From assembly GCA_964291675.2 (NCBI GenBank), contig OZ219866.1:1888001-1952000 (forward strand): a stretch of DNA of 64,000 bases, given 5' to 3'. Below the pieces are notes generated by a model that saw only the letters and a program-made list of their open reading frames with translations, was not told where the DNA came from and did not search any database. Numbering within the stretch: position 1 is the first letter of the stretch; each line of letters starts with the position of its first letter. The position numbers and the translations under genes were made by a program. This document shows, one piece after another, positions 39,226-51,998 of the stretch. The DNA is from Alphaproteobacteria bacterium (lineage in GTDB: Bacteria > Pseudomonadota > Alphaproteobacteria > MPNO01).

Positions 39226-39248
39226 GCCCGGGAGCGCGCCCTTCGACA

Positions 39249-39965
39249 GGGGCTTACATGGATGGGTTGACGGGCGGTTGGCTGGCGCAGACTGCCGACG
39301 GGAACGCCGCCCCGCCTGCCCCCTCCCGTCATGCCGGGACTTGATCCACTGCTGTCCGGTTTAGATTTTCGACGCGGGCTCCGCGCCCGTGAGCATCTGC
39401 ATCTCCGCTCCCGCTGTTACCCCTACGTCATGGCCGGACTTGATCCGGCCATCCACGCGGCCTCTCCGCCCGCACGACGGTCCGACGAGAGGGGCGGCGG
39501 CGCCCATGGATGCCCGGATCAAGTCCACTGCTGTCCGGTTTAGCCTTCGACGCGCGTCGCGCCCGGCGTTTCCCGCCCCATCACCATGCCTCCCCCCATC
39601 GTCATGCCCGGCGCCCGGATCAAGTCCGGCCATGACGGGGTGGGGGTGGCGGTGGAGAAGCACGGGAGCCGGGTGCGGCCCGCCCCGCCCGTAGGTGCCC
39701 GGAACGAGGCCGGGGTGACAACGGAGGGGCAGGGACGGCAAGTGCGGGCGTGCGGCGATCCATGTCCCGATCCGGCGGATGCGTCGATATCCCGCCCGGA
39801 ACAAGGCTTTGCGCCCGGTCCAGCTCATATGAACCGGACAGCAGTGGACTTGATCCGGGCACCCACTGGCACCGCCGCCCCTCCCGGCCGAGCGCCGTGC
39901 GGGCGGAGGGGCTGCATGGGTGGCCGGATCACCCCCGGGCTTGATCCCGGGGCCCGCCATGACGG
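39249..39965. repeat. Repeat cluster: MITE-1 end, REP-B copies and MITE-2 (39347..39846)
   Basis: GGGGCTTACATGGATGGGTTGACG; TIRs at 39347, 39526 and 39832; GGACTTGATCC on both sides of MITE-2. Confidence 0.85.
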
Positions 39966-40044
39966 GGGGAGGGGCGCCCGTCAGGCGGATAGAAACGTCC
40001 CAATCGGGGCACTACTCTCCCCCCCCCAACCGCCGGAGGGACCC

Positions 40045-40854
40045 ATGCTCACGCTCTACCACCAGGGAAGCTCGGTCTGCGCGGCCAAGGTGCGGGTCGC
40101 GCTGCACGAGAAGGGGCTCGACTGGCGGGGGGTCGTGGTCGACGTGCTCAGGGGCGAGCAGTTCCAGGACTGGTACCTCGCGCTCAACCCCAACGCGGTG
40201 GTGCCGACGCTGGTCGACGGCGGGCGGGTGGTGATCGAATCGACGGTGATCTGCGAATATCTCGACGAGACCCGGCCCGACCCGCCGCTCAGACCCGCCG
40301 ACGCCTACGATACGGCCCGGATGCGGGTCTGGACCAAGCGGATCGACGAGCGGCTGCACCCGATGACCAGCGCGCTCACCTATTCCGCCTCGCACCGCCA
40401 CGCGATCCTCGACAACAACACGCCCGAACAGGTCGAGGCGATCATCGCCGAGACCCGCGACCCGGTGAAGCGCGCGCGCAAGTGGGAATGGATCGAGCAG
40501 GGCATCAAGGCGCCGAGCGCGCGCGCCGCCGTCGCCGAGTTCGACGCCACCCTGGCCGACATGGAGGCCGCGCTGGCCGAATCGCCCTGGCTCGCGGGCG
40601 ACAAATACTCGCTCGCCGATATCGGCATGACGCCCTATGTCAACCGGCTGTCGATGCTCGGCATGGCGGGGTTCTGGGACGCGCGGCCCCGCGTCGCCGC
40701 CTGGTTCGCCCGCATCCGCGCCCGCGCGAGCTTCGCCCCGGCGCTGATCGACGCCGTGCCCGACGAGCTCGCGCGTTCGCTCGCCACAAACGGAGCGCGG
40801 AGCTGGCCCCTTGTGGCCGGGATGCTGGAGGCGGGGCGCAAGGGGGGCGGGTGA
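40045..40854 (+). CDS. Glutathione S-transferase family protein
   Basis: SVCAAKVR, LNPNAVVPTL, ESTVICEYLD and YSLADI. Confidence 0.9.
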   Translation: MLTLYHQGSSVCAAKVRVALHEKGLDWRGVVVDVLRGEQFQDWYLALNPNAVVPTLVDGGRVVIESTVICEYLDETRPDPPLRPADAYDTARMRVWTKRIDERLHPMTSALTYSASHRHAILDNNTPEQVEAIIAETRDPVKRARKWEWIEQGIKAPSARAAVAEFDATLADMEAALAESPWLAGDKYSLADIGMTPYVNRLSMLGMAGFWDARPRVAAWFARIRARASFAPALIDAVPDELARSLATNGARSWPLVAGMLEAGRKGGG

Positions 40855-41180: not shown

Positions 41181-43478
41181 ATGCACCCGCGTTTCTCGAT
41201 CGCCCCGGCCGCAATCCTGCTGCTCGCCGCCTGCGGCGGCGGCGGCTCCACCGTCCAGGCGCCGCCCGCTCGCCCGCCGCCGGCGACTCCCGACCCGGCG
41301 TATCACCTCGGCACGGCGCGCTTCACCACGCACCAGCCCGGCGTGCTGGAGCAGATCGGGGCGCACCACGCCTACGCGCGGGGCCTCTCGGGGCGCGGGG
41401 TGCGGATCGGCATCGAGGACAGCATCGTCGACTACACGCAGCGCGGCGAGTTCGGGAGCCGGGTCAGGCTGCGCGACGCCGACGGCGCGAGTCTGGCGTA
41501 TTCGCGCCCGTTGGGGGATTTTCCCGGCCACGAGATCCAATCCTGCGAAGACCGCCGCACATGCGCGATCTGGGAGGGAAACAGCGAGGACGACGACGAA
41601 GCGCTCAATCGCTGGGTAAGGCGAATCGTGCGGGAGGACGGCTGGCCCACCCGGGACGACAGCGTGTTCGTGCTCGACGAGTATTACCCGCAACGCGGCC
41701 CAGGGCTATTGTTCCGATGGTCGGAATTGCCGACGCCCTACGGTCGGGGGGCGCACGGCACGGTGGTCGCCGCGCTTGCGGCCGGAACCAATCTCGGTGT
41801 CGCGGCGCAAGCCACGATCGTCCCCTTGGCGATCAACCTCACCGACGATCGGCGCGAGGACGCCGTCGCGGGTCGGGTCTTTGAAACCGTCGTCGAGTCG
41901 CTCCGGACCGCGGACCGGCGGGACCTCGATGAGTCGATCGCCCGGGGGGTGCGGGAGGATTATGGGAAATTCGACATCATCAACCGGTCCCATGGAGCGC
42001 GCACCTCTCAGCTTACGATTGCGCAGACCGCTCGACAGGTCGCATGGCTCCAGACGTATCTGCCAAACAGTCTGCGTGCCGAATGGCAGATGGACAGACC
42101 CGATTCCGAGAAGACCGTTGTGGTCTGGGCGGCAGGGAATGACAGCGATCCGGTGCCCGGTCGGGGCGCGGCCCTGCCATACGTCATCCCGGAGCTGCGC
42201 GGACATACGCTCGCGGTCATCGCGACGAACCCGCGGACCGGCGGCATCGCAGGCTATTCCAACCGCTGCGGTTCGCTTCCGCAGGACTGGAGCACCGCCC
42301 GGTACGGGCGGCACTATTGCCTGGCCGCGCCCGGGACCGTGCGGGGCCTCGTGCCCAACCCGAACCGTCCCGGAAGGGGCGACGCGAGAAGCGGGCTGAA
42401 CGGAACCAGCTTCGCCGCGCCCCTCGTCTCCGGCTCGCTCGCGCTGCTGATGGAGCATTTCCGGGGAACGCGCGGAAACACGCAAATCGTCAAGCGCATG
42501 ATCGACACCGCCGACCGGAGCGGGCGGTACGCCGATCTTGAGACTTATGGCGCGGGCCATCTCGATCTCGAGGCGGCGCTGTCGCCGGTCGGCTCGCTCA
42601 GCGCGGGACAATCGGCGCACGCGCTTGGCCGCACGTCGCTCCAGACACCGGCCGCTTTCGGCTCCCTCGCCGACCGCGCCGGCTCCATCGAGCTCGCGAC
42701 GTTCGATGCGCAGGAGTTTCCGTTCTGGGTTCCGCTGTCCGCGCTGGTCTCGCAGGGTGCGGCCGGGCGGTCCCCGATCCCCCGGTTCGGGGAGGCGGAG
42801 GCGTCGCACTCGCCCGCCCCCGGCCTCGACGACCTCGCCCTGCACTGGATGAATGTGGGCGACGATGCAGGCGCGCGAGACCCGGACGGCCGGCAGTGGG
42901 CGATGGGGTTCGGCCGGGCATCGGCAAGCCTCGCGCGCCGGCCGGGCGACGGCGGCTGGGGGTACGGGCTGAGCGTCGACGACGGCGGGCATCTGGGAAC
43001 CGAGGCATCCGGCGCGTTCGGCACCGACCTGCGGTCCGGCACGATGTGGGCCTCGCGTGACGTTTCGCATGAATTGGCGGCCGGGTGGACGCTGAAGGCC
43101 ACCGGGACGGTGGCGCTCAGCCTGCCGCAATACGGCAAGGACGCGATGTTCCGGGCGACCCCCTCCATGCTGACCGCCATGTCGGCGCGAATCGGCACCC
43201 GGACCACGGGGATCGTCGTCGAGCAGCCGCTGCGCGCCGAGACCGGCACCGGCCGGTTCCGGGTCGAGAACGGGCGGATGGAGAACGGGAAACGGCTTGT
43301 TGACGCGTTTCGCGTTCCGCTGCGCCCCGATGGGCGCGAGCTGCGGATGACGCTGCGCCACGACCTGGAGGCGCTGGGCGGGACCGTCGCGATGGAGGCA
43401 GGCGGCGCGGTGCATGCCGGCCATGTCCCGGGCGAGCGCGAAGCGACCGTCGGCGTCGCCTGGCGCGCGACCTGGTGA
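41181..43478 (+). CDS. S8 subtilisin-like serine peptidase lipoprotein with C-terminal beta-rich domain
   Basis: Lipobox LLAAC-GGGG; IEDS, HGT, AGN and GTSFAAP catalytic motifs; ends AWRATW. Confidence 0.85.
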   Translation: MHPRFSIAPAAILLLAACGGGGSTVQAPPARPPPATPDPAYHLGTARFTTHQPGVLEQIGAHHAYARGLSGRGVRIGIEDSIVDYTQRGEFGSRVRLRDADGASLAYSRPLGDFPGHEIQSCEDRRTCAIWEGNSEDDDEALNRWVRRIVREDGWPTRDDSVFVLDEYYPQRGPGLLFRWSELPTPYGRGAHGTVVAALAAGTNLGVAAQATIVPLAINLTDDRREDAVAGRVFETVVESLRTADRRDLDESIARGVREDYGKFDIINRSHGARTSQLTIAQTARQVAWLQTYLPNSLRAEWQMDRPDSEKTVVVWAAGNDSDPVPGRGAALPYVIPELRGHTLAVIATNPRTGGIAGYSNRCGSLPQDWSTARYGRHYCLAAPGTVRGLVPNPNRPGRGDARSGLNGTSFAAPLVSGSLALLMEHFRGTRGNTQIVKRMIDTADRSGRYADLETYGAGHLDLEAALSPVGSLSAGQSAHALGRTSLQTPAAFGSLADRAGSIELATFDAQEFPFWVPLSALVSQGAAGRSPIPRFGEAEASHSPAPGLDDLALHWMNVGDDAGARDPDGRQWAMGFGRASASLARRPGDGGWGYGLSVDDGGHLGTEASGAFGTDLRSGTMWASRDVSHELAAGWTLKATGTVALSLPQYGKDAMFRATPSMLTAMSARIGTRTTGIVVEQPLRAETGTGRFRVENGRMENGKRLVDAFRVPLRPDGRELRMTLRHDLEALGGTVAMEAGGAVHAGHVPGEREATVGVAWRATW

Positions 43479-43884: not shown

Positions 43885-44462
43885 CAAGTCCACTGCTGTC
43901 CGGTTTAGATGCGCTGGATCGGGCGCAAAGCCTTGTTCCGGGCGGGATATCGGCGCATCCGCCGGATCGGGACACGGATCGCCGCACGCCTGCACTTGCC
44001 GTCCCTGCCCCTCCGTTGTCACCCCGGCCTCGTTCCGGGCACCCACGGCCGGGGCGGGCCGCACCCGGCTCCCGTACTCCTCCACCGCCACCCCCACCCC
44101 GTCATGGCCGGACTTGATCCGGCCACCCATGCGCGGACTTGATCCGCGCAACCACTGGCGCCGCCGCCCCTCTCGTCGGACCGTCGTGCGGGCGGAGGGG
44201 CTGCGTGGATGGCCGGATCACCCCCGGACTTGATCCGGGGGCCGGCCATGACGTAGGGGTAACAGCGGGAGCGGAGATGCAGATGCTCACGGGCGCGGAG
44301 CCCGCGTCGAAAATCTAACGGCCGCGGGCCGGGCACCGGACAGCAGTGGATCGAGTCCGGGCATGACGGAAGGGGGCCGGGCATGACGGGGTGGGGCGGG
44401 GCGGCGTTCCCGTCGGCGGTCTCCGCCAGTCGACCGCCCGTCAACCCATCCATATAAGCCCC
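43885..44462. repeat. Repeat cluster inverted relative to 39249..39860 (MITE-2 43891..44348 plus MITE-1 end)
   Basis: TIR CACTGCTGTCCGGTTT at 43891; ACCGGACAGCAGTG at 44335; CGTCAACCCATCCATATAAGCCCC at 44439..44462. Confidence 0.85.
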
Positions 44463-49323: not shown

Positions 49324-50018
49324 GGGGCTTATGCCGAATACTTGACGGGCGGGTGGCCAACGACACTTCTTCCGTCATGCCCGGCCCCCGGATCGAGTCC
49401 GGGGGTGACGAGGGGGGTACATGACGAGGTGGGGCAGCATGGAAGCATGGGGAGCGTTCGGGCGCTCGGGCACGACGCCGGGGTTCGCCGGCGGGCACGC
49501 CGCAGATCGCGCCGCGCGGCCGCGCCGCTCCCCGTGACGCCCGGCCCCCGCTCCTTCTCCCCGTTACTCCACCGACTCCCCCGCTACTCCCCCCGTCATG
49601 CCCGGACTTGATCCACTGCTGTCCGGTTTAGCCTTCGACGCGCGTCGCGCCCGGCGTTTCCCGTCCCATCACCATGCCTCCCCCCATCGTCATGCCCGGA
49701 CTTGATCCGGGCATCCACTGGCGCCGCCGCTCCTCCCGACGGGGCGTTGTACCGGTGGCGCCAGTTGTTGCGCGGATCAAGTCCGCGCATGGGTGGCCGG
49801 ATCAAGTCCGGCCATGACGGGGTGGGGGTCGCGGTGCAGGAGTACGGGAGCCGGGTGCGGCCCGCCCCGGCCGTGGGTGCCCGGAACGAGGCCGGGGTGA
49901 CAACGGAGGGGCAGAGACGGCAAGTGCGGGCGTGCGGCGATCCGTGTCCCGATCCGGCGGATGCGCCGATATCCCGCCCGGAACAAGGCTTTGTGCCCAG
50001 TCCAGCTCACATAAACCG
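49324..50018. repeat. Repeat cluster: MITE-1 left end, REP-B copies and a MITE-2 (from 49614) interrupted by IS110
   Basis: TATCGAAG|GGGGCTTATGCCGAATACTTGACG; TIR at 49614; right TIR split at 50018/51922. Confidence 0.85.
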
Positions 50019-50366
50019 TCATGGTCTCGGCGGTGCTGAGCCACCCCGTGGCATGAAACTCGGGGCGTTCGGCTGAGGGTTTGCCGATCGTCGCGCGGGT
50101 CTGCCGTGGCAGGATGGGAATGGTGGAGGCGGCGACGCGTGAGCGTTCCGTTTATCGGTGATGTGGTTCCCGAGATATAAACTGCTTCCGGCGGTCGGCT
50201 CCGCACCCCGTACTGTGCCCGGCCCGCGGCCGTGGACGCGCGGCAAATCGAACCGCACCCGCTCGACGGGTGCGTGTCCTTCCGACCGCTGTCCCCGCCT
50301 CCACCGTGGCGATGCCACGGCGCGATCCTACGCCGCCGTGGCGAGAGCGCAACGAGGAGGACAGCG
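50019..50366 (+). ncRNA. Candidate IS110 bridge RNA region
   Basis: Long structured non-coding left end; hairpin GCACCCG-CTCGA-CGGGTGC flanked by target-like AATCGAACC and TGTCC. Confidence 0.5.
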
Positions 50367-51617
50367 ATGAAGACGGAAGGCTTGCACGTCGTGCGGCCGC
50401 GCGCGGCGGGTCTGGACGTGCACAAGATGGAGATCACCGCGACGGTTCGCCTGTGCGAGGGCGAGGGCGAGCCGGTGGTGGAGACGCGCTGCTTCAGCTC
50501 GCTTCCGAGCGGTCTGGCGGAGATGGTCGCCTGGCTGACCGGTCGCCGCGTCGAGGCCGCTGTCATGGAAGGGACCGGGATCTACTGGCAGGCGCCCTTC
50601 GCGGCGGTGGAGGCGGCGGGGATCGAAGCGATCCTGGTGCACGCGCGTCAGGTCAAGCAGTTGAAGGGGCGCAAGACCGATGTCGCCGACAGCGTGTGGC
50701 TGGCCTGCGTGTGCCAGTTCGGGCTCTGCACGCCTTCCCATGTTCCCCCCGAGCCGTTCCGGGAGCTGCGCTCGCTGAGCCGCCAGCGGCGTACCCTGGT
50801 CAGGCAGCGCTCGACCGTGCGCAACCGGGTGCAGAAGATCGTCGACCGCGCCGGCCTGCGCATCGGCGGCATCCTCTCCGACGTCTTCGGCGTCAACGGC
50901 CGCAAGATCCTCGACGGGCTGGCGCAAGCCACGCCGCGCGCGGTCATCCTCGCCTCGCTCACCGGCCACGTCGCCAACAAGCTGGAGGGGCTCGGCGAGG
51001 CGCTCTCCCTGAGCCTGGGCGACAACGACCGCTTCATGCTCGGCGATCTGCTGGACGAGCATGACGCGCTCGAGGCGCGCATCGCGTCCTACGGCGAGAA
51101 GATCGACCGGCAGATGACGCCGTGGCAGGAACAGCTCCGCCTGCTGACCACCATCCCCGGCATCGACCGCATCGCCGCCTCGACCATCCTGATCGAGATC
51201 GGCCCGGATATCGAGGCGTTCGCCTCCAAGCAGCACTTCGCCGCCTGGGCCGGGCTCTGCCCCGGCAACAACGAAAGCGGCGGAAAGCGCCGCAACGCGC
51301 GCACCCGAAGGGGCTCCAAGACGCTGCGCGCCAGCCTCGTCGAATGTGCCCACGGCGCGGCCCGAACCAAGGGGTGCCAGTTCGAGGCCCACCACCGCGC
51401 GCTCGCCGCCCGGCGCGGATACAAGCGCGCCATCGTGGCCAGCGCACACAAGATGCTGCGCATCGTTTATGTCGTGCTCAAGACCGGCAGGCCCTACTAC
51501 GACCGCACCGCCGACTACGACGCGCTGATGGTCAAGCGCAACGCCCCGCGCTGGATCCGAATGCTCCGCCGCTACGGCTACATCCAACCCCGGCGCGCCG
51601 AACCCAAGGCCACCTGA
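50367..51617 (+). CDS. IS110 family DEDD transposase/recombinase
   Basis: GLDVHK, VMEGTG, KTDVADS, TIPGI and GLCPGNNESGGK. Confidence 0.95.
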   Translation: MKTEGLHVVRPRAAGLDVHKMEITATVRLCEGEGEPVVETRCFSSLPSGLAEMVAWLTGRRVEAAVMEGTGIYWQAPFAAVEAAGIEAILVHARQVKQLKGRKTDVADSVWLACVCQFGLCTPSHVPPEPFRELRSLSRQRRTLVRQRSTVRNRVQKIVDRAGLRIGGILSDVFGVNGRKILDGLAQATPRAVILASLTGHVANKLEGLGEALSLSLGDNDRFMLGDLLDEHDALEARIASYGEKIDRQMTPWQEQLRLLTTIPGIDRIAASTILIEIGPDIEAFASKQHFAAWAGLCPGNNESGGKRRNARTRRGSKTLRASLVECAHGAARTKGCQFEAHHRALAARRGYKRAIVASAHKMLRIVYVVLKTGRPYYDRTADYDALMVKRNAPRWIRMLRRYGYIQPRRAEPKAT

Positions 51618-51628
51618 CCGGCCCGCAT

Positions 51629-51921
51629 AACGCCGGACCGCCGCGCGGGACCGCTTCGGGCCACATCGGGGAAGTCCACCGCTCGTCTCGCCGCCCCCTT
51701 CCGGCGATCTCAGCCAACTCCCTCCCGGCGTTGGATGGGGCCCTCGCGCGCCCCCACCGAAACTGTTTCACGGCAACGCCGGACCGCCGCGCGGGACCGC
51801 TTCGGGCCACATCGGGGAAGTCCACCGCTCGTCTCCGCCGCCCCCTTCCGGCGATCTCAGCCAACTCCCTCCCGGCGTTGGATGGGGCCCTCGCGCGCCC
51901 CCACCGAAACTGTTTCACGGC
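51629..51921 (+). repeat. Tandem duplication (146/147 bp) of the IS110 right end
   Basis: Copies at 51629..51774 and 51775..51921, both ending AACTGTTTCACGGC. Confidence 0.92.
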
Positions 51922-51998
51922 AACCGGACAGCAGTGGATCGAGTCCGGCCATGACGAGTGGGGGTGCCGGCGGTGAGTTCGCGGCGGCCCGCGCGCCC

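Follow-up and report, generated by a model that had tools for sequence, protein, structure and literature searches.

The window (the whole stretch of DNA analysed here, 64,000 nt in length) carries two MITE-like repeat arrays, at 39247-39500 on the minus strand and at 44150-44460 on the plus strand. Between these near-identical inverted twins lies a 4.6-kb segment that contains a GST-like ORF (39586-40854) and a subtilase ORF (41181-43478). Further along lies one of the eight IS110 copies of the genome (Table 1). The plus-strand array contains an IS110 target that is canonical and unoccupied in every respect except that 16 nt have been inserted between TCTAA and ACCGG, and the site therefore reads AAAATCTAA + CGGCCGCGGGCCGGGC + ACCGGACAGCAGTGG. 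Together with one shared base on its left and two on its right, the insert forms a 19-mer that is identical to the reverse complement of a segment in the left end of the IS110. The original prediction had described an empty IS110 target with 16 extra bases at AA/ACCGG (here and below a slash marks a junction), an exact reverse-complement match of 44318-44336 to 50215-50233 and an uninterrupted counterpart in the reverse complement of 39347-39369. The empty site, the match and the counterpart, which is an exact copy of the uninterrupted 23-mer target, were all borne out by our analysis. The 16 bases do lie in the crossover zone, but the junction itself is AAA/CCGG, one base further to the right in the same A-run.

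Alignment of the insert-bearing repeat arm with its sister, the inverted twin arm 4.7 kb away, which has no insert, produced a single, unambiguous gap of 16 columns between identical flanks. The 19-mer occurs twice in the window, compared to 0.04 matches expected from shuffled sequences. Both junctions of the insert show microhomology: a single base (A) is shared at the left one and two bases (AC) at the right one. The insert is placed within the A-run that is common to target and donor, no more than 1 nt from the junction deduced from the eight IS copies of the genome and 79 related loci, and no extended homology around the 19-mer was detected between the insert site and its source in the IS. 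Apart from the 16-nt insert, the two array arms differ by an 18-nt module and by one added 16-nt tandem unit (period of about 20 nt) near 44357-44396.

Table 1. Positions of the features discussed in the text (window coordinates, unless contig C1 or C2 of the assembly is named).
Feature	Position	Strand	Remarks
MITE-like repeat array holding the target	44150-44460	+	near-identical inverted twin at 39247-39500
Interrupted IS110 target	44310-44349	+	left arm AAAATCTAA 44310-44318; right arm ACCGGACAGCAGTGG 44335-44349
16-nt insert CGGCCGCGGGCCGGGC splitting the A-run core	44319-44334	+	single 16-column gap versus sister copy
19-mer (insert + left A + right AC)	44318-44336	+	identical to reverse complement of 50215-50233
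Uninterrupted sister target in inverted twin arm	39347-39369	-	exact AAAATCTAAACCGGACAGCAGTG
Nearest IS110 copy (1 of 8 in the genome)	50016-51923	+	target CATAAA/CCGGACAGCAGTGG
IS110 left end	50016-50366		
Transposase ORF	50367-51617		
IS110 right end	51618-51923		146-bp tandem duplication
Predicted bridge-RNA core	50122-50305	+	closed by P1 (50122-50132/50295-50305); inner P2 (50190-50198/50282-50290)
Predicted left-target guide GAUAUAAAC	50174-50182	+	sense of target left arm + core
Hairpin D (GU.CCCGGC-loop-GCCG.GGAC)	50215-50237	+	holds the patch source 50215-50233; most conserved left-end block
Donor guide-like segment GCGGCAAA	50240-50247	+	matches right-end terminus ..CACGGCAA(A)
Group II intron RT-maturase ORFs	C1:916937-917635; C2:1578955, 3469625, 2337221, 2121235, 3413459, 3481595		

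The IS110 element, its targets and its predicted bridge RNA

The transposase ORF encodes the two domains PF01548 (2.3e-22, residues 14-161) and PF02371 (3.6e-23, residues 258-342). All eight IS110 copies of the genome occupy one and the same motif, which reads ..CAT(A/C)TAAACCGGACAGCAGTGG where it is unoccupied; left junctions read ..TAAACCG-TCATGG.. and right junctions ..CACGGCAA(A)CCGGACAG, with AAACCG common to target and junctions and with no terminal inverted repeats. A search for related loci yielded 79, representing 17 IS types with 59-99% protein identity in metagenome-assembled genomes (MAGs) of several phyla. In all 17 types the left end begins (C)NN(T)CATGG after AAA and the right end finishes TTTCACGGCAA(A). 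Since a congener copy of a 99%-identical IS is inserted in ..GGCTAAA/GGAGAAC, the junction must follow the A-run, and the left end of the window copy begins CCGTCATGG at 50016; its right-end terminus lies at 51923. Further information on target choice came from a related IS with 91% protein identity, a very active element present in about 40 copies in one MAG (loci L033-L066, L068, L075, L093 and L105). The left flank of these copies is always (G)ACAAAA, their right flanks are unrelated, and we therefore conclude that the family targets via the left arm and the AA core. Several of the copies stand in right end-left end (head-to-tail) tandem arrays, the junctions of which yield the donor sequence. 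Slippage is frequent in the A-run core: three of the eight copies in our genome end GGCAA/CCGG and the other five GGCAAA/CCGG, and the tandem junctions of the relatives carry either 3 or 4 A.

Duplications were noted at the right end of two copies. In the window copy (51629-51924) the 146-bp tandem duplication joins the right-end terminus ..CACGGCAA to an internal GCATAA/CGCCGG via a shared AA. This internal sequence resembles the target with its AA core, which suggests a recombinase-mediated unequal exchange at a pseudo-target. In a second IS copy (C1:1048172-1046197) the right-end terminus is duplicated in tandem over 15 nt directly at the target junction (at about 1046180-1046230), with AAAC on both sides. 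The start of the IS left end (50016-50060, CCGTCATGGTC..) also resembles the CCGTCATGGCCGG.. ends of the palindromic modules of the target array (window 44100-44125), and an evolutionary link between the palindromic repeats and the IS ends is possible.

When the left ends of the IS types were aligned, the variable block before AAAC (50174-50182) was found to repeat the bases that lie to the left of the insertion site of each type, which corresponds to the left-target guide as described for IS621 (PMC11208160). The 3 nt before AAA equal the left flank in 16/16 IS types and the 4 nt before it in 11/16 (compared by eye), and the bases themselves differ among types. Because this guide covaries with the left flanks across 16 IS types, we regard the region as a bridge-RNA gene, and the source of the 19-mer is as the original prediction had placed it, in the non-coding left end and within the putative bridge-RNA region. 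The donor guide-like segment and the right-end terminus are both conserved across the family, leaving no covariation to count. Compensatory changes were detected in three of the 11 pairs of P1 and in one of the nine pairs of P2; over both helices 89.1% of 667 cells are paired, as opposed to 36-50% when the partners are slid, and none of 500 shuffles reached the covariation score. A search against Rfam returned no bridge-RNA family and only six matches, all under the gathering score and attributable to chance.

Hairpin D is placed between the left-target guide and the donor guide-like segment and folds with a predicted -14.8 kcal/mol. Seven of its eight stem pairs are invariant over the 17 types and 99.3% of cells are paired, an invariance that carries no information on pairing, while the loop varies. 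The segment found at the insert site comprises the 5' strand of this hairpin, its loop and most of its 3' strand. Its conservation marks hairpin D as the most constrained part of the RNA and probably as a site of protein contact. A role of hairpin D as a guide was considered and rejected, as it does not vary with the flanks. With respect to a right-target guide, k-mer complementarity over 14 types and inspection revealed no left-end segment that consistently covaries with the right flanks. The sequence GCUGUCC (50288-50294, on the 3' side of P2) is complementary to GGACAGC of the usual right target arm, although a guide role for it is doubtful because the same bases are conserved in relatives that have other right flanks. 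The element is an ordinary active member of the IS110 family with a somewhat unusual, nested layout of its predicted bridge RNA.

Rarity of the match and searches for recurrence

The genome (2 contigs, 4.81 Mb, 69% G+C) has a completeness of 93.7% and a bin contamination of 6.67%. Within it the 16-mer and the 19-mer each occur nine times, eight of these in the eight full-length IS110 copies and the ninth at the insert site, and the count of the 19-mer is still nine when up to 2 mismatches are allowed. The 19-mer is thus not a dispersed repeat, the origin that the original prediction had named as the one to exclude. To calibrate the match, the IS was taken as window 50026-51925 on both strands. 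Outside the IS, 16-mers matching it start at 124 of 4,793,656 positions (2.6e-5) and 19-mers at five positions, namely the insert site and four others that are apparently due to chance; taken alone, a match of 19 nt at some genomic position is not rare. Among the repeat ends examined, this 16-mer is the only indel in the target motif, and it matches the element that uses that motif. The 14-mer right arm of the target has 148 genomic matches at up to 2 mismatches, about 100 of them in repeat context and eight at IS right junctions (assigned by eye), and the insert is absent from all 11 other repeat ends that have the same left arm as the insert site, the flanks being identical there.

We also looked for the insert in sequencing runs and independent assemblies. 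A search of sequencing runs returned one run in which 0.69 of the words were found and five runs from sponge metagenomes in which 0.05-0.10 were. Logan contigs from four runs gave hundreds of short pieces, many of which stop at 44335 with the canonical ..CTAA before it (that is, they derive from other copies), and none of those listed spans 44300-44340. The exact 25-mer that spans both junctions had no match in metagenome contigs. The 16-mer followed by AC and a base other than A had at least 120 such matches, and all 80 that were inspected lay in unrelated contexts. Among 41 relatives searched, the repeats and the neighbouring gene were found and no orthologous copy of the insert-bearing repeat arm.

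Searches for a second event of the same kind were extended to related genomes. The 16-mer is present in four of 12 genomes of the genus; G008 has three occurrences, all in IS copies, and G011 and G003 have one each, in unrelated sequence. The 11 other genomes of the genus yielded no further instance of the hairpin segment outside IS copies. In five genomes with related and partly very active IS (G041-G045), degenerate patterns that required a non-IS right context matched at the frequency of the controls, and none of the matches had the genome's own loop sequence; patterns of this design would miss other copied segments or a right context that starts with TG. The same 16-mer was also seen in an unrelated, conserved context, ..GTT-16mer-GCACCGCG.., at L013 (in G011) and at L122 and L126 (in G042), from which it follows that this GC-rich word can arise independently. 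The patch is a single event, at one locus in one assembly.

Origin of the insert

Published work on related elements describes several features of the IS110 reaction that bear on how such an insert might form. In IS621 cleavage of the top strand immediately 3' of the core leaves a 3'-OH on one side and a 5'-phosphoserine on the other, and cleavage of the bottom strand follows later; cleaved DNA accumulates, exchange being less efficient than cleavage (PMC11208158). For CazIS110-1, a preprint describes integration that is overwhelmingly top-strand only, with the bottom strand intact and host factors required to finish, and reports that the RNA bound in the RNP is for the most part truncated, with its end between the two loops (10.1101/2025.10.25.684509). 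Single-stranded excised circles and half-match recombination are reported for IS621 in a further preprint (10.64898/2026.08.31.748434), and the account of IS621 sites in human cells gives background indels only (PMC13396178). The literature surveyed contained no account of insertions at IS110 targets that derive from an IS or from a bridge RNA.

Of the two origins offered by the original prediction, we favour copying with the element or its RNA as template, though this reading is unproven. We consider it about evenly balanced whether the insert is a one-off patch, templated from the IS, that the bridge recombinase machinery of the IS110 left at its own target. Our confidence is equally middling in the more specific proposal that the top strand was nicked at the AA core, its 3' end extended on a sense-strand IS template and the product re-ligated via microhomologies of 1-2 nt. 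In this scheme, the complex of recombinase and bridge RNA, once bound to the target, would cleave its top strand at the core, giving a free 3'-OH and a protein-linked 5' end, and strand exchange with the donor would then fail. The 3' end ..TCTAA would anneal through its terminal A to U/T 50233 of a sense-strand template from the IS, either the bridge RNA, whole or in part, or a single-stranded top-strand IS circle, and a polymerase would copy 16-18 nt. The new end, ..GGGCA or ..GGGCAC, would anneal to the intact bottom strand by 1-2 bases (the last core base and the first base of the right arm), the nick to ..CCGG would be sealed through reversal of the phosphoserine link or by a ligase, and replication would fix the insertion in one daughter. 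A cut at AAA/CCGG would require that one 3' A be trimmed or that the cut be made in a slipped register, and the length variants of the A-run show that a slipped register does occur. The initial pairing of primer and template would consist of one A:U(T) pair only.

Copying primed from a nick would explain the position of the insert, its orientation and the 1-nt and 2-nt identities at its junctions. The top strand of the patch bears the antisense of the bridge RNA, which is the orientation predicted for priming from the first-cut (top) strand. Seven intact ORFs for group II intron RT-maturases are present in the genome and fall into two families (of three and four copies), with group II intron RNA domains found by Rfam in both of the two loci examined; reverse transcription is therefore enzymatically possible. 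No match to Ku was found in the genome (93.7% complete), and the presence of the RT-maturase ORFs together with the lack of a Ku match favours nick-primed synthesis over end-joining. We put forward only tentatively, and regard as unlikely, the narrower version of nick-primed copying in which the bridge RNA itself, or a short processed fragment consisting of hairpin D, served as template, which would make the insert the product of a natural, accidental event resembling prime editing. With an RNA template the candidate copying enzymes would be one of the seven group II intron RTs and DNA polymerase I, and the 19-mer would amount to a complete cDNA of the hairpin, which stands between the portions of the RNA that bind target and donor.

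Three other origins were considered and set aside. The aberrant recombination, or excision, footprint that was the first origin offered by the original prediction is contradicted by the source of the patch, which lies about 200 nt (200-218) inside the left end and not at its terminus and is inverted; an excision footprint would consequently need two deletions plus an inversion. A local template was rejected since the nearby repeat offers only a 10-nt similarity (GGGCCGGGCA). Fragment capture during end-joining is unlikely in a genome with no match to Ku.

Microhomology-mediated template switching produces short exact copies of sequence from elsewhere, with 1-2-nt junction microhomology and with inverted copies among its products. 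The insert could have arisen during replication, independently of the recombinase, if a strand that stalled in the hairpin-rich repeat jumped to the IS, copied the hairpin and returned. The 1- and 2-nt microhomologies and the inverted copy are as expected of such a switch, the source is itself a stable hairpin, other small tandem duplications exist in the same repeat arm, and the nearest IS, 5.9 kb away, has the orientation that gives an inverted copy. A distance of at least 5.9 kb is, however, long for fork-local template switching, and no extended homology flanks the 19-mer. Moreover, a template switch leaves unexplained why the break lies exactly in the target core of the very element that supplied the template, when about 100 repeat ends offer many other positions, and we judge this origin unlikely. 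An origin by recombinase action alone, through two exchanges at pseudo-sites flanking the hairpin or through half-match recombination that left 16 bp behind, would be in keeping with the apparent use of pseudo-sites by this recombinase (the 146-bp right-end duplication and the 15-nt duplication at an internal AAAC) and with the half-match recombination that the preprint on IS621 reports. Yet inspection found neither boundary of the hairpin segment to have an AA core or a convincing guide match, registers like those of IS621 predict AAA or a heteroduplex-derived TCCA on the left in place of the observed TCTAA-CGG, and two rare events would be required, all of which renders an origin by the recombinase alone highly improbable.

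An error of the assembly or its consensus, by which the 16 nt would be absent from the DNA of the organism, has in its favour that the region is highly repetitive, that the bin is partly contaminated (to the extent given above) and that the listed Logan pieces fail to span the site. The flanks are nevertheless perfect and the 16-nt gap is clean, the flanks of the source share no similarity with the site, so that mis-mapped reads are no obvious cause, and an assembly in 2 contigs implies the use of long reads; we hold an artefact to be distinctly unlikely. That an unrelated, GC-rich 16-nt insertion resembles the IS by coincidence might be thought plausible given that GC-rich 16-mers recur (a reversed control pattern occurs 0-4 times per genome), that the IS has four other 19-mer matches and that the same 16-mer stands in an unrelated context in two other genomes. 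The frequency per 16-mer is nonetheless 2.6e-5, with neither the location in the core nor the three further bases of identity yet taken into account. Chance is thus very unlikely, indeed scarcely credible, because the matching sequence is also a 16-nt indel, placed where crossover occurs in the target of this same IS.

Relation to known systems and meaning of the scar

The closest characterised system, as described by Durrant 2024 (PMC11208160) and Hiraizumi 2024 (PMC11208158), is the IS621 bridge recombinase, which likewise has DEDD RuvC-like and Tnp domains. The two elements also have in common a left-end RNA gene with a same-sense left-target guide and a donor guide matching the right-end terminus (both predicted in our element), a short shared core, the lack of terminal inverted repeats and insertion into repeat elements. 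Compared with the published descriptions of IS621, the core of our element is AA in an A-run instead of CT, and the right flank is hardly specified, as seen from the random right flanks of the roughly 40 copies of one relative. The RNA predicted here is nested (P1 would enclose the target part and P2 the donor part), whereas that of IS621 has two tandem loops, and it would possess an extra, invariant hairpin just 5' of the donor guide. ISPpu9 (PMC12288879) and ISPpu10 (described in a preprint), both of the IS110 family, are similar to our element in that each inserts at a single conserved site within palindromic intergenic repeats present in many copies, and their abstracts mention no such scar.

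The ingredients of the proposed patching are supplied by the top-strand-only and copy-out models of IS110 transposition, as these are presented by Sun 2025 and Xie 2026: the top strand is nicked and the bottom one stays whole, the excised circles are single-stranded and have the sense of the top strand, host factors are needed to finish, and truncated bridge-RNA species are abundant. Those studies deal with the transfer of whole elements or junctions, whereas the segment found here is internal and 16 nt long, and the present IS family may behave in the same way. In its RNA-template version, the proposed event would resemble prime editing and target-primed reverse transcription (PMC13604230) in having an RNA-guided nick, 3' extension on the guide, flap resolution and fixation by replication. 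It would differ from prime editing in that IS110 has no dedicated reverse transcriptase, that primer pairing is limited to 1 nt and that the product is a by-product and not programmed. The insert shares with template-switch insertions an exact inverted copy and 1-2-nt microhomology, and is unlike them in that break and template both belong to the targeting system of one element.

It is the scar, rather than the element, that is the point of interest. We regard it as a templated insertion, and as such the outcome of a known process, with the new twist that it is tied here to an RNA-guided recombinase, and it looks like the rare trace left when an insertion failed and the element or its RNA served as template for the repair. 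IS110 bridge recombinases are under development as scarless, break-free genome editors, and a copy of part of the guide-RNA gene at the position of the cut would be the first hint that aborted reactions can be patched with IS- or RNA-derived sequence. Such patches would constitute a class of by-product for which amplicon sequencing of edited targets could search directly. If the reading in which the RNA served as template is true, the action of a bridge recombinase can leave sequence of its guide RNA written in the target. For the biology of the family, the scar bears on whether IS110 transposition uses top-strand nicks and single-stranded intermediates that are completed by host polymerases.
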